Counted from the first letter of the stretch, positions 1 to 64,000 are shown. The stretch is DNA of 64,000 bases from Bdellovibrionota bacterium FG-1 (GCA_051382295.1 JBBCAW010000005.1:1-64000); one strand, 5' to 3'. Translations and numbers: made by a program. Notes: generated by a model from the letters alone, not told the origin.

Positions 1-230
1 ATGGCGCTGTTTGCACACCCGATTTTTACGTTTATCAAAATGAAACTGCGCAAAAAGACCCCGTTCGTTTTGTCCTCAAGTACCGCGGGCGCTTAGATGA
101 CAATTGGAAGGACGAAGCCGCCGTTCGGGTGCAGGATTTAAAGCATGCGGTGGACGAGATTTTAGCAGGTCGAGATCCTGGCTCTGTTCAAATTCCGTCG
201 ATGGGCTGCTCGATTAAGTGGAAGGGTTGA
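1..230 (+). CDS. Thioredoxin-family/AhpC-TSA-like protein, 3' part (truncated by window edge)
   Basis: Frame 3 reads GAVCTPDFYVY...YRGRLDDNW...PSMGCSIKWKG*, the typical C-terminus of this family. Confidence 0.85.
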   Translation, partial: GAVCTPDFYVYQNETAQKDPVRFVLKYRGRLDDNWKDEAAVRVQDLKHAVDEILAGRDPGSVQIPSMGCSIKWKG

Positions 231-3878: not shown

Positions 3879-5924
3879 CTAGTGGCGAATACTCTGAAAA
3901 TCCATCTGCGCTTCAGATTCGGAATCCAAGAGGTTAGTCCAGTTTTTTGTGCCATCCGATTTTTCAGGCTTCGAGGTTAACAAATCGAAAGAAACGAATT
4001 TAACGCTATATCCCACACGTCCCTTACTCCTAAACTCGTCATTCAGTACTCCATTCCATGAGGTTTTGATCTTGGATGGATCGGCCGCCAGTCCGCCGCC
4101 CAGGTGGATTGGCTGAGGGCGCCCATCTCCGAGTAAAGTATGCATAGGGTCCTGAAGTTTGACCACATTGAAGCATTCGTTAGTGAGTCCGCTCACTCCG
4201 CCTAGGGGCTCCCCTTGGCAGTTGCGGAGCTTTTCTAGATAGCCCGTCATCTCATTTCTGAGGGCGTCCTTCATGGGGGTTTGTGCGAGTATTGCGGAGT
4301 CGCCCATGAGTGAGTCGACCATCGACATAATCATGGTTTTGGCTTGGCTGGCCTTGTCCGGTGGAAAAACGGGGGCCCAAAACGCCAATACTTGCTGGCT
4401 GTCAAAGTAGCGTTCCATGGGGTCGTTAAGGACGTCGTTGGGGATATTGTATTTGGTGACTTCGATGGGGTTGGGCACCATGGCGGTTTGGTAAGCGCGG
4501 TCCATCGCGGCGGGGCCGATGGTTTGGATGGCGTTGCCGTCTTTTCCCTGAAAGCTCCCATAATACGTGGCCAGTGCGTCTTGCCGGTCCCAGCCGCCCC
4601 CCGAGGCACTGGCTTTGTCACCGGCATCGCGAATAGCGAGATTAGGGATGCTTTTGGCCAAGTGCAAAGAAATGGCTTCATCTCCTTTTGCACCAAAGTC
4701 CGGTACCCCAGATCGAACAAGGTCCTCAGAAGTGAGAACGGGGCCGATGCGGCTTCCAAAGGGCTGGGCTGCTGCATAGGCCTTGAGATCTAAGTCACCC
4801 CAGGGCGAAAACAGGACTTTGGCCTTCGCTTTTACGCGAACCGCGTAATAGGTCAAGATGCTGGGGTCTTTATAAACACCCAAAACGAGTTCGCCGCCGA
4901 GGGAGTCGGGTTCGAGTTGGGGAGTGCAGGCAGCGGCTTTTCCTTTTGTTAGATCCGTTTTGAATGTCACTGCATAGGTATCAAATTTAGCTTTGATATT
5001 GTTGAGTTTAATCAAAGCATTGGGCATGAGTTCGTCCATGACAATGCTGCCCGTATCGAAGGTGTGATTGCCCAAAGTGTAGTAGGCCGACAAAAAAGCT
5101 TGAATGGTGCGCTCAAAGGCGGCCGGGTCGGGTTTGCCTTTCATGGTGTGAGCAGTATTATAGGTCACGTTTTTAGCGGGTTCTTGGTTGGCGTAGTCTT
5201 TGAGGGTTTCGATTCGTCGTCGCAAAATCAGCTCCCGAGGTACGAGTCCCAGTCCATAGGCGAGGTCTTGGACCGTTTGGGCCGCCGCGGCAGTCTTTGG
5301 ATCTGCGGCGAGTTGCGCGATCAGTTTTTTAAGGTCGGGATCGGTGTTCCAAAGCCAGAGCCTCAAGATGATCGAGTTGGTTGCGCCAATGGACTGACAA
5401 TTGGCTTTACGGATGTCTTCGATCGATTTGAGCTGCTCAATCAAAGTCGAGTTGATGGCGTCCAGTGGGTTATCGGGGGGGATGCCAATTTCGGGTAAGA
5501 GGTCGAGCTGGCAAAAGTTATCGCTTTTATTAAAAACCATACAAACGGTGGGGACACTGTAGTTTTTGTCAGGCTTTCCGCTCGGCGACCAGAGTGCGGG
5601 ACCGGCGGCACCCCCATTTCGAGGAAAGCCCCTCTGCGCCATATTGCCCATGACATAATAGCGAAATAGAAATTTTTTGTACTGACGACGCATCTCGTAA
5701 TTCAAAAAAGAGATTTGATTGAGATGTCTGGCCTGAGTGGCCGCGCCGGCGTAGGCAGCCAGATCCGCGGCATTTTGCAGGTTGATCTTGGCGTTGACGA
5801 GCATCCCTGTGTTGATGACAAAGGCCAGAAACAAAATAAACGTCATCATCATCATGCCGATCATGATGGACGCTTGGCCGCGTTCGTCGCCTTTTCGACC
5901 TTGGGTTCCCCGTTTCTTACTCAT
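3879..5924 (-). CDS. TadG-like Flp/Tad pilus assembly protein
   Basis: N-terminal ERGQA + TM segment + INLQNAADLAAYAGA Tad motif. Confidence 0.8.
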   Translation of the reverse strand: MSKKRGTQGRKGDERGQASIMIGMMMMTFILFLAFVINTGMLVNAKINLQNAADLAAYAGAATQARHLNQISFLNYEMRRQYKKFLFRYYVMGNMAQRGFPRNGGAAGPALWSPSGKPDKNYSVPTVCMVFNKSDNFCQLDLLPEIGIPPDNPLDAINSTLIEQLKSIEDIRKANCQSIGATNSIILRLWLWNTDPDLKKLIAQLAADPKTAAAAQTVQDLAYGLGLVPRELILRRRIETLKDYANQEPAKNVTYNTAHTMKGKPDPAAFERTIQAFLSAYYTLGNHTFDTGSIVMDELMPNALIKLNNIKAKFDTYAVTFKTDLTKGKAAACTPQLEPDSLGGELVLGVYKDPSILTYYAVRVKAKAKVLFSPWGDLDLKAYAAAQPFGSRIGPVLTSEDLVRSGVPDFGAKGDEAISLHLAKSIPNLAIRDAGDKASASGGGWDRQDALATYYGSFQGKDGNAIQTIGPAAMDRAYQTAMVPNPIEVTKYNIPNDVLNDPMERYFDSQQVLAFWAPVFPPDKASQAKTMIMSMVDSLMGDSAILAQTPMKDALRNEMTGYLEKLRNCQGEPLGGVSGLTNECFNVVKLQDPMHTLLGDGRPQPIHLGGGLAADPSKIKTSWNGVLNDEFRSKGRVGYSVKFVSFDLLTSKPEKSDGTKNWTNLLDSESEAQMDFQSIRH

Positions 5925-5969: not shown

Positions 5970-5986
5970 TGTCTAATCTTTGGACA
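5970..5986. promoter_or_regulatory. Palindromic putative bEBP upstream activating sequence
   Basis: TGTCTAATCTTTGGACA, 100 bp upstream of a sigma54 motif; near-identical copy at 42969. Confidence 0.5.
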
Positions 5987-6069
5987 TCCTGTTGAAATTT
6001 CAGGCAAAATGACCCCAGAGGTTTTACGGGGTTACACCGGTCGAGCTTTGAAACCGTCCTTTGGCGCAT

Positions 6070-6085
6070 CGGCACGGAGGTTGCT
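6070..6085 (+). promoter_or_regulatory. Putative sigma54 promoter
   Basis: CGGCACGGAGGTTGCT, GG-N10-GC spacing. Confidence 0.65.
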
Positions 6086-6104
6086 CTAGTGGCCCACGAA
6101 CAGC

Positions 6105-6206
6105 GGTTTTCGGTGAGTGATTTCGCGAAAGCAAACTTCCTGTTTTTACACAACTTTCGCCATCCATGGCTGTTGTGATTTTCGCGAAATAACTCACCGC
6201 AAAACC
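6105..6206 (+). ncRNA. Long stem-loop, candidate structured leader or ncRNA
   Basis: GGTTTTCGGTGAGTGATTTCGCGAAA pairs with TTTCGCGAAATAACTCACCGCAAAACC; inner CACAAC/GTTGTG stem. Confidence 0.45.
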
Positions 6207-6290
6207 TTCTACGCAAAAGAGGTTATTCTCGCTTTCAGCGGGAATTGCTGATGTCTCGGAGTATCGGTTTGGTTTAAGGAGAAATACATT

Positions 6291-6773
6291 ATGAATGGTT
6301 TTAATAGGAGAGTTTCGTTTGCCCTCGGTGCTCTTGGCTTCTTTGGAGCCCTTGGGGTGCTTGAACTCTCCGCACGAGCGTCAATCGATGGCGCACCGAT
6401 GAGTTCTATCAACGACCCCACGAGGCGGTTGGTCCTTCAGATGAATCCAGTTTTGAAACGCTCGGCTTTGCAATTTCAGAATGCACTACCTTCGCCTGCA
6501 AATCGGCCGCTGATTTCCCAAAATGACGAACTTCAGGGCGCTTTCAAAGCCCCCTGGACCTTGCCCGAAAGTCATTTTAATCCAGGATTTGTGACTTCTT
6601 ATTATAACGATCAAGACGGCATGATGAATGTTTCCGCCGCCCCCTGGAATCAGGGAATAGCTTCGCACTTTGGGCCGCAAATTTACGCTTATGGGATGAA
6701 ATACATGGGCGAATACGATCTCAGTGCTTCACTTCCAGTCTGGGACCCCGCATTAGCCGGGGCAGCGTTCTAA
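6291..6773 (+). CDS. Hypothetical secreted protein
   Basis: SD AAGGAG, signal-peptide-like N-terminus, 160 aa. Confidence 0.65.
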   Translation: MNGFNRRVSFALGALGFFGALGVLELSARASIDGAPMSSINDPTRRLVLQMNPVLKRSALQFQNALPSPANRPLISQNDELQGAFKAPWTLPESHFNPGFVTSYYNDQDGMMNVSAAPWNQGIASHFGPQIYAYGMKYMGEYDLSASLPVWDPALAGAAF

Positions 6774-57676: not shown

Positions 57677-59062
57677 CTACTGCGGTGTGCTGTCTTGAGT
57701 CATTCGGCGGCCCACAAAATAATAGCGATAGGTCACGCGGTCAAAGATGTTGAGGGTTTTGTCCTCGGCCACTGAGGCGGGGCCTCTCGTTTTGTTCGCA
57801 AAAATCACGGCGTTGACCCCAGTTTTGGGTGCGGTGCCTTTCTTGGCGTTGGGATTGAGTTGCTCCATCATTCCGGCGAGCATTTGTTGCATATCTCCCA
57901 TGCTGTTGTCGGCGCCCCCGCCTTCACTCCCGCCGCCTCCGTTATGGCCATACGTCGAACTTGGCATGCTCATATCGGCGACCTGGCTTTCGAGATCCGA
58001 AATCGCCGTCGCGAGTTTTCCGGCTTGAGCGGCATTCATTCCGTTGGTTGACGCTCCGGCCATCATCGGGCCGGGGGGGCCGTCTTTGGTGAGGTAGTCC
58101 CCTAGGTTTTGTCCGGAGTCTTTTTTGAATTCGCTGTTAAACTTGGGGCTGCTCACAAACCCCGGAAGAGTGCTGTCGCTGGCAATGGCGCATTGGAGGA
58201 TGGTGCCACCGGTTGGGTTGTTACGAGCGGACGCGCAGGTGGCTTGGCGGGTGGTAGCGAGGTTAGGGTCTGAGGGATTAGAGGGATTGCCGGTGTCTCC
58301 ACCGGTACCGCCGCCGGAACCATTGGCGGCTTGGCCCTGGGGATTATAGCCATTGGCGGCCCCATTATTGGCGAGCACATTGCTGTCGGCGACTTTTTTG
58401 GCGGAGTCTAAGTTGGTTTGCATGGAGTCGTCGTCGTTTTTCATGGAGCGGTATTTCATAAAGACTTGAAGCCCGGCCATCGCGGCGTTGATGCAGGCGC
58501 CGATGTCTTTGTCTTTTTTGACTTCCTTGGTTTCTTTTGTGGCCTTTTCGCCTTCTTTTGCGCCTTCTTTGGCTTCTTTCGCTTCGTTGGTCTGATCATT
58601 GCCTTTATTCATTTGTTGGTTGATCATAAAACCTGCGCCGACGCCGCCCACGGCCATGATCGCGCTGGTAAAGTTTTTAGTCACGAGTGCGTCTGTCACG
58701 CCGCCCGCGACCGTGGCGCCCATGCAGATGTATTCGCTCGTGGGTCCGCCCGCAAACGAAGCCACGCAACCGTAGGTACACACGACGCCTACCGCGGACC
58801 AGACTTTCCACATCGCACTATTGGCGTGCGAACCTTCTTGCGCGGTCTTGGCGGCTTGGCAATATTGGAGTTTTTGCTGTTGCGAACCGAGCGCAGGATT
58901 GGCGGCGTTAGCGCCGCTTTGGATCTGGTCGGCTTGAGATAAGGTTTTGCCACAGACGGCATCGAGTTCGCCATCAATGGCGCTATCTGCGCGCGCGGTG
59001 TGAGGTGGCGGTAACGCCAAGAGAGAAAGGCTGAGTGCGAGAGCGAGAGTGCGAACAGCCAA
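57677..59062 (-). CDS. Secreted Gly-rich hypothetical protein
   Basis: Signal peptide ARA, hydrophobic hairpin, C-terminal LNIFDRVTYRY. Confidence 0.75.
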   Translation of the reverse strand: MAVRTLALALSLSLLALPPPHTARADSAIDGELDAVCGKTLSQADQIQSGANAANPALGSQQQKLQYCQAAKTAQEGSHANSAMWKVWSAVGVVCTYGCVASFAGGPTSEYICMGATVAGGVTDALVTKNFTSAIMAVGGVGAGFMINQQMNKGNDQTNEAKEAKEGAKEGEKATKETKEVKKDKDIGACINAAMAGLQVFMKYRSMKNDDDSMQTNLDSAKKVADSNVLANNGAANGYNPQGQAANGSGGGTGGDTGNPSNPSDPNLATTRQATCASARNNPTGGTILQCAIASDSTLPGFVSSPKFNSEFKKDSGQNLGDYLTKDGPPGPMMAGASTNGMNAAQAGKLATAISDLESQVADMSMPSSTYGHNGGGGSEGGGADNSMGDMQQMLAGMMEQLNPNAKKGTAPKTGVNAVIFANKTRGPASVAEDKTLNIFDRVTYRYYFVGRRMTQDSTPQ

Positions 59063-59449
59063 AAATGAACCCCCTTAAAATCGATGTCTCCTATTATTGT
59101 GAAGGGGATGATTACCTGAGTCAATCAGTTATAATCTGGTCTCTCATTCTCGGTTTATTATGGTGTAACTCGTTGGAATGATAAAGTAAAACAGTGTTTC
59201 CGCTGAAAATTTGGGCAGGTATTTGGTATTGTTGGTTAATTTCCATGAGTTCACGTGAAAAAAACCCGAGGCAAGGGGACCTTGTTTTCACGGCAGTGAG
59301 TTGCATTAACTGCCTTTCTGCGGCAGTAAATCAAATCGGCTCGAAGAATGAGCGCCCCAATCGGGGCTGAGTATGATTTTTGCGTATGCAATATATGGAT
59401 TGGCTCGCGTGAATGCCAGAAACGATGGTCGCAAACGACAACGAGAGAG

Positions 59450-59890
59450 TTAAGCCGCCATTCGCTTTTGAGAACCCAGGTGCCAGTCTACGATTAGTTT
59501 TTCTGGAGTCTTGGAACTTTCCGAAAGGTCAGAAAATTTGATGGGAATGATCAAAGCCAACGCCTCAGCGACGAAACCACGAATTGCATACTCGTTGATC
59601 TGAGAAAGGCGCTTCTTCTTTTCACGCTCCCATCGCAGGATGGTGCCACTGGTAAGTCCAAGTTTTCCGGCAAATTTTTCCATAGAAAGATCTAAGGTCT
59701 TTCTTAAGAATTCCACCTCCTGGCCGCGAAGCGGTACATGCTGGTTTAAAATTTCGGCAGCGATCAGGCGCTCGACTTCCCCTAACTTTGCAGTGACAAT
59801 CGCTCCTAGTTCCTTGCTGGTTCTTACCGGGAGATTCTTAACCTCAACATATTCTAGGCCACCATACTGTTTAAAGTTCGTCGTTTTCAT
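59450..59890 (-). CDS. MqsA/HigA-like HTH antitoxin
   Basis: VEVKNLP N-terminus; FLRKTLDLSMEKFAGKLG..TILRWE HTH. Confidence 0.8.
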   Translation of the reverse strand: MKTTNFKQYGGLEYVEVKNLPVRTSKELGAIVTAKLGEVERLIAAEILNQHVPLRGQEVEFLRKTLDLSMEKFAGKLGLTSGTILRWEREKKKRLSQINEYAIRGFVAEALALIIPIKFSDLSESSKTPEKLIVDWHLGSQKRMAA

Positions 59891-60183
59891 TGTCCGGCCT
59901 TTTCTTTTTTAGTGAGGTGCCTTCGCATGACCGTAACGATCACGACGGCTCCTTCAATTTTGCATGAAAGTGCGGCCCCTTTTTTATTCGTATCGTAGCC
60001 AGCGACAAAATAAGTTTTTTTATCATCCTGCCATCGAAATGCCACACAGGTCTTTCCTATACTTGCCAAATCAGCTCGGACAAGTTTTCGGTTAATCATC
60101 TGTTGGAAGCCATGCGTGGTGACCTGAATCTCGTCGTTGATCAAGGCTTCGATAATGATCTTCTTGTCCGCCGTTGTAACCAT
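59887..60183 (-). CDS. DUF4258/RelE-like putative toxin
   Basis: TTHGFQQMINR..., VVIVTV; ATGA overlap with HTH gene; AT-rich. Confidence 0.7.
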   Translation of the reverse strand: MVTTADKKIIIEALINDEIQVTTHGFQQMINRKLVRADLASIGKTCVAFRWQDDKKTYFVAGYDTNKKGAALSCKIEGAVVIVTVMRRHLTKKEKAGQ

Positions 60184-60264
60184 AACACGATGAATTTATA
60201 TTATTCAATGAAAAATGCAATGAAAAATAAAGTGTTAAAATAAATAAGATTTAAAGTCAGGTCC

Positions 60265-61779
60265 CTAAATCCCCACGGTCCCTCTGCGTCCTTTATCTTG
60301 ATAGGTTTGGTGAATTCGTTCGAAGATATTGACGTTCTTATCGAGGAGCGAAATCGGGCCTTCGCCCGCGGGTCCACGACCGCCAAAGTCGGCAATGCCG
60401 TTGGGATTTTTTTGTGCGTCGTCTTTTTTCGGTAAAAACTGCGCCAGGAGTCCTGAGAGGTCGGGGCCTTTGTCGGGCGTGCCGCCGCCACCGCCGCCAG
60501 ACGCGTAGCCGCCACCTTCGTAGCCTGACCCTTTGGATGAATCCGCCATTTTGGCTTGAGGGTCGGCGTTATCGCCACCCGAAGCGGGTGCGGTTGAGGC
60601 GCCACCGTTGAAACCACCTCCACCTCCGCTGCCACCGCCGGGGGGGCCTGAGCTTGAAAATTTACCGGCTGCAGGTCCCGGGTCTATGCCAGTTTTTGGG
60701 ACGTCGGCGATCGGGCGTCCGAGGCTTCCGTTATCGGGAGTAAGAGGTGTGCTATCTTGCGCAGCTTGGACATCGCTCGTGCCAGCGCCGTTGAGTGACG
60801 TGGGCGCAGCGGGCGCGAGCGCATCGGCCGGGCCGACTTGTCTGGCGCCCATGGGTGCAAATGGACTAATGGTCGGCACTTGGTTTTCGAGAGCTTTGAG
60901 TTTGTCGGCGGTATCATCGAGTTGATTGGCGCTCATGATGTTAAAGCCTCCGGTCATCATCTGGGTTGCGCCTTGGATGATGGACATCATTCCACCGGCC
61001 ATGGCTTCTTTGGCCATTCCGCCTTGCTCGTCAGCGGCTTTGTTGGCGATGCGTTTAGTGTCCCTTTTCATCGCACCTTTCTTCATTTCAATTTCTTGAT
61101 TGCGGGCTGCTTCCTGCGCTTGTGCTTGAGATGGGCCTGGGACCACATCTGTTGTGATGTGGTATTTTTCGTTTAATTTAAAGTTTTTGACGATCCGATC
61201 GTTTACGCCGCCGTCAGTCGCTGCGCTCACAAAACCTTGGCCACCGAGTGAGCCATCACCAACTTGTGGACCCTTTTTTTCGGCTTTCAAGGCTTCTGCG
61301 CTTCCTCCTTTGATCTCTTTGGCGTTACCCTTATGGTCGGCATATTGAATCATTTGAACGAGGCCCAGGCCGGTATTGAGTCCGCCTGTGACGAGTTCGA
61401 TGTCGCCCGTGGTTCGTTGGGTAACTGCGGCGGCATGAAGTGTGGCGGATTGTGTTCCTCCTGCTGCTTGTGCGTTCATCTGTTGGGATTGCCCTACCGC
61501 TGCGGTTGAAATTTGACCTGCAGCTTGCGTGACGGCATTGGTGACTTTCGCGCCTTCGATCATGGCGCGTGTGCCACCACAGCCGTAGCGATCACCGTTA
61601 ATTCCAGCTGAAACTTTGCAATCGGAATCGTTTGTGCTGTATCCATCGGCTTCGTCCCATCCGCCGTCTCGTTCGAGTTTGGGAGTGATGGGTTTGTCCT
61701 CGGCGCGGGCCTCTCCCCCCATTCCCAATCCCACCATGAAGGTTAGCGCGAATACAAATCGTAGGCTGCGTGATTTCAT
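60265..61779 (-). CDS. Secreted Gly-rich hypothetical protein
   Basis: Signal peptide ARA, Gly-rich linker, C-terminal VNIFERIHQTY. Confidence 0.75.
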   Translation of the reverse strand: MKSRSLRFVFALTFMVGLGMGGEARAEDKPITPKLERDGGWDEADGYSTNDSDCKVSAGINGDRYGCGGTRAMIEGAKVTNAVTQAAGQISTAAVGQSQQMNAQAAGGTQSATLHAAAVTQRTTGDIELVTGGLNTGLGLVQMIQYADHKGNAKEIKGGSAEALKAEKKGPQVGDGSLGGQGFVSAATDGGVNDRIVKNFKLNEKYHITTDVVPGPSQAQAQEAARNQEIEMKKGAMKRDTKRIANKAADEQGGMAKEAMAGGMMSIIQGATQMMTGGFNIMSANQLDDTADKLKALENQVPTISPFAPMGARQVGPADALAPAAPTSLNGAGTSDVQAAQDSTPLTPDNGSLGRPIADVPKTGIDPGPAAGKFSSSGPPGGGSGGGGGFNGGASTAPASGGDNADPQAKMADSSKGSGYEGGGYASGGGGGGTPDKGPDLSGLLAQFLPKKDDAQKNPNGIADFGGRGPAGEGPISLLDKNVNIFERIHQTYQDKGRRGTVGI

Positions 61780-62299
61780 ATCTTCCCCCTAAACCACCCC
61801 AAGGCGACACACCTCAAAGGACGGTTTGTTACCTCTTGATTGTCATCTGAATTTATGTCTGAGTCAATAAGTCAAGTAATAATCGGCAGCTTGTTTTCTA
61901 TAGCATTGATTTAAAAGGCAAAATTAGGAATTCTCGGCGAGGGTGTCGGGGACGGCCATCCAGGCCTCGGCCGCTCTTGTCGCATCCATGCGACGCGGAC
62001 GCCCCTCACCTCGCCGCAGAATTCCTCGCGCCCGCCTGCGGCGAAGGAGCCCTTGCGGCATAAATACCTCACCTTTCGAGGCAAAGGGGTGGGCCGCTTC
62101 GGGCGCTTTTATTGGCTGGGCGGGCTTGCGAGTGGGATGATTAGGCAACCGCATCCCTTAGTTCGCTCCTGGATCGGAAACTTTTTTTCCGGGGTCTTCT
62201 TCTTGAAAGGCTGAGAGCTGATAGCTGACAACTCTAAATGAACCAAATCGGACAGCTCCCATCCATGAGAACACCGGTTGCGCTGCACCCGGAGCCTCC

Positions 62300-62452
62300 T
62301 CATTGATGATCTAGATAGAACAGAACCAACTTGGCTAAAAACCACAAAAACTGGGATAGAATTTTTTGAGTCCCTATTTTTTGCTTTAGTTTTTTAAGCC
62401 ATCGACGAAAAGAATAGTGTTCGGCCTTGCGACCGTTCTTCTTGTTTTTCAT
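62300..62452 (-). CDS. 50-aa cationic/hydrophobic peptide (cassette 1)
   Basis: SD AAGGAGG; MKNKKNGRK...ILSQFLWFLAKLVLFYLDHQ. Confidence 0.75.
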   Translation of the reverse strand: MKNKKNGRKAEHYSFRRWLKKLKQKIGTQKILSQFLWFLAKLVLFYLDHQ

Positions 62453-62523
62453 CGGGGTTACCTCCTTTCTTGTGAAAAGGGGGTAGCTCCATCTTTCCTG
62501 TCCGATTTGGCAGGGACCCATTG

Positions 62524-62539
62524 AGCAACTTCAGTGCCA
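62524..62539 (-). promoter_or_regulatory. Sigma54 promoter, cassette 1
   Basis: TGGCACTGAAGTTGCT. Confidence 0.8.
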
Positions 62540-62728
62540 GCGTTATCGCGATTTTCTCGATGTTTTTGCTGGAGTTTGGTTCGATACGCGGTGAGTGCGG
62601 CTGAAAGTCGGATCAGTGAATTGCAGTCTTCTTCAAAAGCTGAGTGCTAAGCGCTGATGGCTCTAAAAAAACCAAACCGGACAGCTCCCATCCATGAGAA
62701 CTCCAGTTGCGCTGCACCCCGAGCCTCC

Positions 62729-62881
62729 TCATTGATGATCTAGATAGAACAGAACCAACTTGGCTAAAAACCACAAAAACTGGGATAGAATTTTTTGAGT
62801 CCCTATTTTTTGCTTTAGTTTTTTAAGCCATCGACGAAAAGAATAATGTTCGGCCTTGCGACCGTTCTTCTTGTTCTTCAT
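62729..62881 (-). CDS. 50-aa cationic/hydrophobic peptide (cassette 2)
   Basis: Same protein as cassette 1, two synonymous differences. Confidence 0.75.
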   Translation of the reverse strand: MKNKKNGRKAEHYSFRRWLKKLKQKIGTQKILSQFLWFLAKLVLFYLDHQ

Positions 62882-62952
62882 CGGGGTTACCTCCTTTCTC
62901 ATTAAAAGGGGGTAGCTCCATCTTTCCTGTCCGATTTGGCAGGGACCCATAG

Positions 62953-62968
62953 AGCAAGGTTGGTGCCA
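62953..62968 (-). promoter_or_regulatory. Sigma54 promoter, cassette 2
   Basis: TGGCACCAACCTTGCT. Confidence 0.8.
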
Positions 62969-63170
62969 GATTTATGTGCAACTTCCGGGGGTTTTTGCCT
63001 GGGGGTTGGTTCGATACGCGGTGGGATGGTCGAAAATCGGATCAAATGCTGAAGTGATCTTCTTCTTCGAAGGCTGAGAGCTAAGCGCTGATAGCTGATT
63101 GCTCTAGAAAAACCAAATCGGACAGCTCCCATCCATGAGAACTCCGGTTGCGCTGCACCCAGAGCACTCC

Positions 63171-63326
63171 TCACGGCTGTCTTAGATAGTAGGATATTGC
63201 ATCGGCTAGAATCACTAAAACCTTGGCTAAGACGTAGAGTCGCCAAGATTTCAATTTAAGTTTTTCCAGCCGAATCCGAGACGAATAATGTTCGTTGGTC
63301 TTACGACCAATTTGTTTATTCTTCAT
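63171..63326 (-). CDS. 51-aa cationic/hydrophobic peptide (cassette 3, divergent)
   Basis: SD AAGGAGG; MKNKQIGRK...WRLYVLAKVLVILADAISYYLRQP. Confidence 0.75.
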   Translation of the reverse strand: MKNKQIGRKTNEHYSSRIRLEKLKLKSWRLYVLAKVLVILADAISYYLRQP

Positions 63327-63397
63327 CGGGGTTACCTCCTTTCTTGTTAAAAGGGGGTAGCTCCATCTTTCCTGTCCGATTTGGCAGCGACCCATCG

Positions 63398-63413
63398 AGC
63401 AAAGTTGGTGCCA
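63398..63413 (-). promoter_or_regulatory. Sigma54 promoter, cassette 3
   Basis: TGGCACCAACTTTGCT. Confidence 0.8.
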
Positions 63414-63572
63414 GGTTTATGTGCAACTTCCTGGGGTTTTTGCTGGAGTTTGGTTCGATACCCGATGAGGATGGCCGAAAATCGGATCAGTGATGGGGTG
63501 AATAGGACAGAAAGCCGGGATGGCGTGTGGGTGTATTCTGAGTGGCATGGGCCCGCAAGCTCTGGTCGTTGA

Positions 63573-63672
63573 GCAGTATCTACTGCCGCGCGGAGGCAGC
63601 TCGTGGCGTTCACCCCGACCTCGGCGCAGTGTACTGCCGCGCGGAGGCAGCTCGTGGCACTCACTCCGAGCT
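63573..63672. repeat. Two ~50-bp REP-like direct repeats
   Basis: TACTGCCGCGCGGAGGCAGCTCGTGGC at 63581 and 63632 with CTGCC/GGCAG hairpin. Confidence 0.75.
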
Positions 63673-63737
63673 GCTCGCTTTAAAAAGTTGCTCTAAATGC
63701 AGACTTAGGTTTCACTACTGACGGGAGGTTTCCGAAA

Positions 63738-64000
63738 ATGGCAGCTCAAGTGGCCCCAAAAAGTGGCGAATTTCTGGATGGTAAGCTTTGGTTCGAGCGT
63801 AAGGGTAAGACCGTGACGCTTGGCATCACTAGTTTCGCCGTAGAGGAAGTCGGCGAGGTTCAGAGTATTGAATTTCCGGATGAGGGCACCGATTTTGTCA
63901 AAGGCGACACCGTGCTCACGGTTGAAGGCGCCAACGGAAAGCTCGAAGTCATTGCTCCGGCAACAGGGATTATTCAAGAGGTGAACGAAGCCGCTCGTGC
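63738..64000 (+). CDS. GcvH-like protein (partial, runs off window)
   Basis: LWFERKGKTVTLGITSFAVEEVGEV...GDTVLTVE..IAPATGIIQEVN; SD GGAGG. Confidence 0.8.
   Translation, partial: MAAQVAPKSGEFLDGKLWFERKGKTVTLGITSFAVEEVGEVQSIEFPDEGTDFVKGDTVLTVEGANGKLEVIAPATGIIQEVNEAAR

Follow-up and report, generated by a model that had tools for sequence, protein, structure and literature searches.

The locus described here raises the question of what is achieved by pairing the two ends of a short bacterial transcript with each other. It lies in a stretch of 64,000 nucleotides from Bdellovibrionota bacterium FG-1 (GCA_051382295.1, JBBCAW010000005.1:1-64000), referred to below as the window, where three successive units on the minus strand carry complementary ends. 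The sequence-only reading took these units for mRNAs inhibited by fold-back and requiring 3′ processing, as for hok and aapA. This interpretation is partly supported overall: the end pairing stands, and the trimming switch finds no support in the folding calculations. At the level of sequence, the unit is made up of an enhancer, a σ54 box, an RNA of approximately 270 nt closed by a helix, a Shine–Dalgarno (SD) hairpin and a conserved ORF for a cationic, hydrophobic peptide. It is predicted, with moderate confidence, to represent a type I toxin-antitoxin-like family that has many copies, carries no name and occurs in bacteria related to predatory ones; its mRNA would be driven by σ54 and the enhancer, and an antisense RNA by a FliA-type promoter.

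The 13-nt stretches proposed to pair read as described, with 5′ arms at 62498-510, 62927-39 and 63372-84 (copies 1, 2 and 3) and 3′ arms at 62243-55, 62672-84 and 63113-25. In the MFE structures of all three copies the pairing is borne out and is one pair longer, forming a closing helix of 14 bp with an outer G·U. The arms then occupy 62498..62511 and 62242..62255 in copy 1, 62927..62940 and 62671..62684 in copy 2, and 63372..63385 and 63112..63125 in copy 3. Measured from outer pair to outer pair, the units are 270, 270 and 274 nt long, in agreement with the length first given, and the copies have z-scores of -5.5, -5.1 and -8.5 when folded as minus-strand RNA. As stated, the A-to-G change in the 3′ arm of copy 2 leaves a U·G pair in the minus-strand RNA, where the plus strand would have C·A. 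Runs of 7 U and 5 U follow copies 2 and 3, with none after copy 1. The U run is not conserved across the family, most copies having 4-5 T in the 8 nt from the last pair.

The three copies belong to a larger family. In the window's genome, a peptide HMM has 27 ORF matches and a DNA HMM has 29 matches, the latter comprising 25 whole units, three pieces on contig C9 and one on C96. These paralogues are intergenic, both tandem and dispersed, as is typical for toxin-antitoxin loci belonging to type I. Relatives are patchily distributed over 26 of the 116 genomes searched from one Bdellovibrionota order (1-27 matches per genome), and all 16 positives in a 300-genome sample of the phylum come from the same order as the window's genome. 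A profile search of 1.84 billion protein representatives returned 58 proteins. Single queries gave 37 pattern matches in viral contigs, none of them confirmed, no relative on plasmids, and in phages one match at E=7 and no relative. The records holding relatives are titled as Bdellovibrionota, Bdellovibrionia, Oligoflexia and Bacteriovoracaceae MAGs. One family copy (L045) sits in a record titled Lysobacteraceae; the genome search places what is apparently the same region (contig C3 of genome G032) in the window's order, and the title is probably a mislabelling.

Family counts were made on 59 of 68 units: the 25 from the window's genome and, out of 43 distinct relative units at the loci retrieved, 34. 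One unit at a contig edge, three without a pattern-detected trailer motif and five with an arm missing or cut short were left out. As the copies are kin and not independent, all family counts overstate the evidence. The neighbouring genes differ at every locus, and several are type II toxin-antitoxin-like. At five loci (L090, L097, L099, L100 and L101), copies adjoin HipA, PIN, nucleotidyltransferase, PBECR2 and HTH genes, a hint that they may share common insertion hot spots. Broken copies also occur. At L090 (contig C9 of genome G000, 1413-1843), the 5′ half of one unit comes after the 3′ half of a different one, and a copy on contig C96 (~4957-5099) is without its -24 box, enhancer and 3′ half, with the antisense promoter motif described below kept.

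Among the 25 own-genome copies, 94.1% of the 375 cells of the closing helix are paired, with two-sided changes at 9 of the 15 pairs; none of 500 shuffles matches this paired fraction and slid registers reach 24-44%. The arm sequence varies between these copies and the pairing is maintained. Of the 708 cells at 12 fixed positions in the 59 copies, 647 are Watson–Crick, 45 are G·U, 3 are A·C and 13 are something else; 54 copies have G·U as their outer pair. The end pairing is thus confirmed as real and is kept by compensatory changes both in the genome itself and in its relatives. Since G·U greatly exceeds A·C on the mRNA (minus) strand, the helix is a feature of the RNA, as had been proposed from the single change in copy 2.

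Transcription of the mRNA appears to be controlled by σ54. The consensus for such promoters consists of -24/-12 elements of the form GG-N10-GC, and boxes were scored against it. A σ54-type box is present at 26 of the 27 peptide matches (one copy needed manual register), with C(-12) placed 15-17 nt before the 5′ arm in whole copies; GG-N10-GC also occurs in 28 of the 36 relatives scored. The boxes of copies 1 to 3 are at 62525..62539, 62954..62968 and 63399..63413 on the minus strand. From the box position, the predicted +1 lies approximately 2 nt before the 5′ arm, near 62513, 62942 and 63387.

Further upstream, two tandem GTCCG-N5-CGGAC-like boxes form a putative enhancer (62579..62614, 63008..63043 and, 103 nt before the 5′ arm of copy 3, 63453..63488, all on the minus strand). 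It accompanies 24 of the 25 own copies, at -92, -103/-104 or -127, in steps near helical turns. Genome-wide, 24 of 25 combined enhancer and σ54 matches are family copies, with a PWM that was trained on the family itself and was passed by only 8 of 32 relatives scored. Homology between copies takes in promoter and enhancer, reaching more than 100 nt past the 5′ arm. An arm-like repeat upstream was discarded as a separate element: it is the enhancer box, and its few high matches are due to tandem neighbours. The genome carries rpoN and approximately 25 full-length σ54 activators. The box, the candidate activator sites and the required proteins are all present, which is consistent with a σ54-dependent promoter.

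The sole non-family promoter with the same enhancer (5970-6005) and a σ54 box (6069-6085) is found on the plus strand of the window at 5970-6773. It precedes a 160-aa ORF (6291-6773) with no Pfam match, behind a leader of approximately 200 nt containing a long inverted repeat, and this gene is a probable co-regulated partner of the family.

The peptide encoded by the 59 units has 38-53 aa, a net charge of +4 to +14 and a hydrophobic C-terminal half. In the window, copy 3 encodes 51 aa with a net charge of +9 and the same hydrophobic half (63171..63326), and copies 1 and 2 encode identical peptides of 50 aa (62300..62452 and 62729..62881; net charge +11), all on the minus strand. Hydropathy over 19 aa is at least 1.6 in 51 of 59 units, with copies 1 and 2 of the window lower at 1.29. 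In 48 close pairs pN/pS is 0.37-0.38, which indicates purifying selection on the ORF; its small size (<70 aa) and hydrophobicity are those of type I toxins. It is modelled as one long helix (pLDDT 77, pTM 0.37), and the peptide would probably insert into membranes. Searches with 24 peptides against Pfam and NCBIfam at E<=5 returned no family, only single weak unrelated matches; none belongs to Hok/Gef, Ldr/Fst, TisB or the other toxin families of these databases. The nearest named cluster in the ESM Atlas is TisB at 0.77, below lead level, and Rfam has two matches in window positions 58000-64000 (E 0.94 and 4.8), far under their gathering scores.

The most conserved residues of this peptide, (Y/H/S)-R-x-x-L-E-K-L-K, correspond to TTNAG-N15-CCGA on the opposite strand. 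The mapped attack-phase FliA consensus of Bdellovibrio bacteriovorus is TTAAG-N16-CCGATA, and Table S2 of the same study gives the variants TTTAG, TTCAG, TCAAG, CCGAAA and ACGAAA, as well as a 15-nt spacer at a flagellin (PMC3627812). The consensus and these variants match the antisense site; unlike in the published regulon, the spacer here is 15 nt, the site is antisense within the coding sequence of a peptide, and the family is found only in another order. Scored against that N16 consensus from a different order, the N15 sites have at least 9 of 11 matches in 53 of 59 units (mean 9.46), at a background rate of 0.00023. Synonymous recodings of the ORF have means of 7.54 and 6.92, the best of 500 being 7.93. 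This consensus count was preferred over a FliA matrix learned from the genome, as the matrix may hold family sites and noise. The copy 3 promoter is at 63256..63281 on the plus strand (-35 63256-60, -10 63276-81) and has 10 of 11 matches; those of copies 1 and 2 (62385..62410 and 62814..62839) are weaker, with 8 of 11 only.

The codons used support this assignment. The conserved Arg is CGN in 58 of 58 units and AGR in none, against AGR in 86 of 177 other Arg codons, and the C of the conserved codon is mostly unpaired in the mRNA (P 0.42). In the SD stem, A·C exceeds G·U (27 to 13 in the 59 units), a reversed strand bias, and in 50 of 59 the leader hairpin folds more stably in its antisense form (-22.3 vs -17.1; shuffles 0.0); for the closing helix, the trailer stem and an ORF helix, the bias favours the mRNA. 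A real antisense promoter is favoured because AGR is avoided even though the Arg C is mostly unpaired, and because the reversal of strand bias coincides exactly with the predicted antisense segment. The -10 bases also pair with the sequence ahead of the AUG, their own partner being better than a foreign one in 39 of 59 units, with two-sided changes, and part of the -35 lies within an ORF helix; the codon bias therefore has a second cause.

The genome carries fliA. Among its six flagellin genes, fliC on contig C3 matches at 11/11 positions, again with 15 nt between the two elements, and two others match at 9/11. Against the promoter, FliA-like sites are scarcely enriched upstream of the genes of this genome (20 sense vs 16 antisense at N15). 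Other antisense promoters were rejected: the σ70 score of the ORF (13.6) equals that of synonymous recodings (13.55), σ54 sites are scattered in 3 of 59 units and the E. coli-style TAAA FliA pattern occurs in none of 59. No conserved site for a convergent promoter was found downstream of the family units. The FliA (σ28)-type promoter inside the ORF would produce an antisense RNA of approximately 85 nt (range ~55-90 nt; 53-86 nt to the hairpin foot) that spans the ribosome binding site (RBS). Its predicted extent on the plus strand is ~62417-62500 and ~62846-62929 in copies 1 and 2, and 63288..63374, with inferred ends, in copy 3. The U tail after its hairpin is weak, with 2-6 U in 10.

On the mRNA, the SD is held in a local anti-SD hairpin, at 62454-62490 in copy 1, 62883-62919 in copy 2 and 63328..63364 in copy 3, where the same segment would form a 15-bp 3′ hairpin of the antisense. 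Opening the RBS of the full-length RNA costs a median of 13.8 kcal/mol (n=25) by equilibrium folding, a calculation that kinetic or standby-site effects lie beyond. The RBS would thus be sequestered in the primary mRNA, as in type I systems.

The type I-like reading can be assembled into a mechanism. A single σ54 activator would turn on all copies through the common enhancer. The closing helix would hide both ends and provide a long-lived mRNA, as in par RNA I, without acting as the translation lock. The lock would be the anti-SD hairpin and a start-codon hairpin, perhaps reinforced by CsrA bound at the leader hexamer ANGGAN and the SD. FliA (σ28) polymerase would start inside the ORF and make an antisense that covers RBS and start codon; the copy would stay silent for as long as FliA is active, as in the swimming attack phase of Bdellovibrio. 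As FliA activity falls, the stored mRNA could yield the membrane-inserting peptide, leading to cell arrest or lysis. It counts against the toxin-antitoxin reading that classical addiction modules do not usually have a σ54 promoter that can be induced.

If this reading is right, the family would be new among type I-like systems and would belong to a phylum in which none was found in the literature searched. That literature holds few subscription papers and has T1TAdb and Supplementary Table S7 of PMC2887945 outside its scope; within it, there is no type I system in Bdellovibrionota and none with σ54/σ28 wiring, and the available part of PMC11264685 has no mention of RpoN, FliA or Bdellovibrio. 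Toxin mRNA and antitoxin would each depend on an alternative sigma factor, the former on σ54 together with an enhancer of its own and the latter on σ28, whose site is encoded inside the most conserved residues of the peptide. The modules would be tied to a developmental programme, making the purpose of chromosomal type I systems directly testable. A bolder and rather improbable proposal is that predatory bacteria have built a life-cycle switch from type I parts. Here, antisense RNAs made by FliA, the sigma factor of the attack phase, would silence approximately 25 stored mRNAs with sealed ends; in another phase a single σ54 activator, to which CsrA would add a third input, would release all of them to give membrane-active peptides for programmed lysis, prey exit or prey damage, and not for addiction.

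The rival that survives best, while still unlikely, is that the units encode no toxins: they could be a tightly controlled set of small regulators in the membrane, or RNAs with a dual function, locked in the same manner, with CsrA-binding RNAs and peptides directed at prey membranes as examples. The inducible σ54/enhancer control common to all copies and the lack of any toxin-family match are in its favour. So is ANGGAN, the hexaloop of RsmE/CsrA sites (PMC7652899), which is present in 55 of 59 units at a fixed place, 19-23 nt from the arm start, with its N positions free. Its stem has at least three of four pairs in 41 units, including two-sided changes, and csrA is present in the window's genome. 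In the window the hexamer is at 62487-92, 62916-21 and 63361..63366 on the minus strand, with a weak stem; hexamer and anti-SD/SD hairpin together span 62454..62492 in copy 1 and 62883..62921 in copy 2. The leader GGA can, however, also pair with UCC before the AUG in a long hairpin, and this pairing may be what keeps it. There are 1-3 GGA loops per RNA against 22 GGA in CsrB (PMC7652899). Unlike sRNAs of the CsrB/RsmZ type, which have many GGA loops and no ORF, the family has one conserved ANGGAN and a conserved ORF. A double lock with a cis antisense is, moreover, a hallmark of harmful peptides.

RNA functions beyond locking are also indicated by the trailer, which covers 62256..62298, 62685..62727 and 63126..63168 in copies 1 to 3 (minus strand). 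The motif GURCAGY is invariant and unpaired, and a GAGG upstream of it is kept even where the stop moves. Two small hairpins had been described here. TTCTCA/TGGGAG belongs to the family at large, with two-sided changes in L026 and L028, although in the window copies the MFE prefers another pairing for its 5′ strand. The TGC-AGC-GCA stem does not: its 9-mer was counted by eye in 6 of 59 units, and elsewhere these bases open the loop of a larger stem (conserved start GURCAGY), which covaries (51 G·U against 12 A·C) and has a loop of ~10 to more than 40 nt. In copy 3, the start of that loop is at 63160-63152 and the small hairpin at 63141-63126. Pairing of the trailer GAGG as an anti-anti-SD showed no covariation by eye. 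Loop insertions are tolerated, with an extra hairpin in the SD-hairpin loop of L043 and in the trailer loop of L030; together with the longer leader of L037, they help to delimit the core structure.

The fold-back mechanism proper, in which the RNA is inactive at full length and is refolded by 3′ trimming to a translated, antisense-sensitive form as in hok and aapA, is doubtful. The strongly covarying helix, which joins the 3′ end to the first nucleotides of the predicted RNA, speaks for such a mechanism. The 5′ arm forms a small alternative hairpin without the 3′ arm, and strong stems just inside the arm could halt an exonuclease. As for isoA1 at aapA1, the family's antisense promoter lies inside the ORF (PMC5416894). 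However, trimming leaves the RBS closed. The median opening cost is 13.8 kcal/mol for the full length, 14.3 without the 3′ arm and 14.7 when cut at the stop, with a further value of 14.4 in the same truncation series, which includes removal of the whole trailer (n=25). For the SD only, in 30 units taken as every second one, the cost is 10.4 vs 10.4 kcal/mol, with a drop of more than 2 in one of 30. An E. coli hokB control, with its ends set at its 7-bp 5′–3′ complement, opens by 8-13 kcal/mol (14.5 to 1.2-6.3) on trimming; its ends were inferred, and two other choices gave no drop and a drop of 5 kcal. The method is able to see a trimming switch, as hokB opens and the family units do not. Removal of the 5′ arm lowered the RBS cost by more than 2 in one of 30 units only. 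CsrA as an activator was likewise rejected: with the ANGGAN loop held open the cost is 14.9 vs 14.6, with a drop of more than 2 in none of 30. In these folding calculations, no truncation, 5′-arm removal or CsrA mimic opened the RBS, and the claim that translation is inhibited until 3′ trimming is not borne out by the model. The alignment does provide 59 natural variants of a 5′–3′ helix conserved without a computed translation switch.

The likeness to hok and aapA holds for the helix and the type I-like mRNA, and fails for an SD freed by trimming and for a 3′ anti-SD as in aapA3. The family shares with hok/Sok the end pairing, the local anti-SD and an antisense from within the 5′ coding part (PMC9841398). 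In hok, tac/ucb-type alternative pairing lets the 5′ end, once freed, take up the anti-SD (PMC9841398). In the family, the 5′ arm is not complementary to the anti-SD (-3.2 against -3.3 for shuffled arms; better than shuffles in 23 of 55), and no leader ORF was seen. With aapA/IsoA of Helicobacter, the family has in common multicopy chromosomal loci, 5′–3′ interaction in a highly folded mRNA (225-250 nt for aapA), a short cationic/hydrophobic peptide, and an antisense over the RBS (IsoA ~76-80 nt) (PMC5416894, PMC6733600). It differs in having no 3′ anti-SD of the kind removed on trimming of aapA3 (aSD3; PMC6733600) and no predicted opening. Its promoters are of the σ54-plus-enhancer and FliA types, in contrast to the TATAAT boxes of aapA/IsoA. 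Its peptide is longer (38-53 aa) and has no sequence match in the databases searched.

Still weaker, and very improbable, is a non-autonomous mobile DNA element with the 13-bp arms as terminal inverted repeats: the 27 dispersed and tandem copies in unrelated contexts and the frequent end of homology at or soon past the 3′ arm would suit it, but the excess of G·U over A·C, with G·U at the outer pair, is an RNA signature, homology runs past the 5′ arm, and the arms differ between copies with pairing kept, so that terminal inverted repeats are rejected.

The layout of the type I-like unit appears closer to par RNA I than to the hok/aapA fold-back. In RNA I of the par (fst) system of Enterococcus pAD1, the SD is held by a stem-loop of its own and the upstream helix is there for stability (PMC7472228), which resembles the 5′-end-hiding helix and separate SD hairpin seen here. 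Unlike par, the family has no convergent downstream promoter, no shared intrinsic terminator and no PXXXG(C) peptide motif. The timP/TimR system shows that a toxin mRNA with a locked SD can be activated with no processing step (PMC13000454), and the conserved unpaired trailer motifs could have a timP-like role in activation. It differs from the family in that no pseudoknot or long-range SD-releasing pairing was identified in the latter, where the antitoxin is predicted to overlap.

Other features lie close to the three copies. Just upstream of copy 3, two REP-like palindromic repeats of 41 nt stand 51 nt apart (window 63581-63672), and an inverted related copy is located approximately 4.3 kb away at 59295-59331. 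On the minus strand, a pair of genes at 59450-60183 is DUF4258-like (E 0.009) and HTH (E 0.0006), both under the cut-off, and is type II toxin-antitoxin-like. It is flanked on the same strand by ORFs at 57677-59062 and 60265-61779 for Gly/Ala-rich proteins of 461 and 504 aa, which belong to no Pfam family and have signal-peptide-like starts and similar C-terminal ends.
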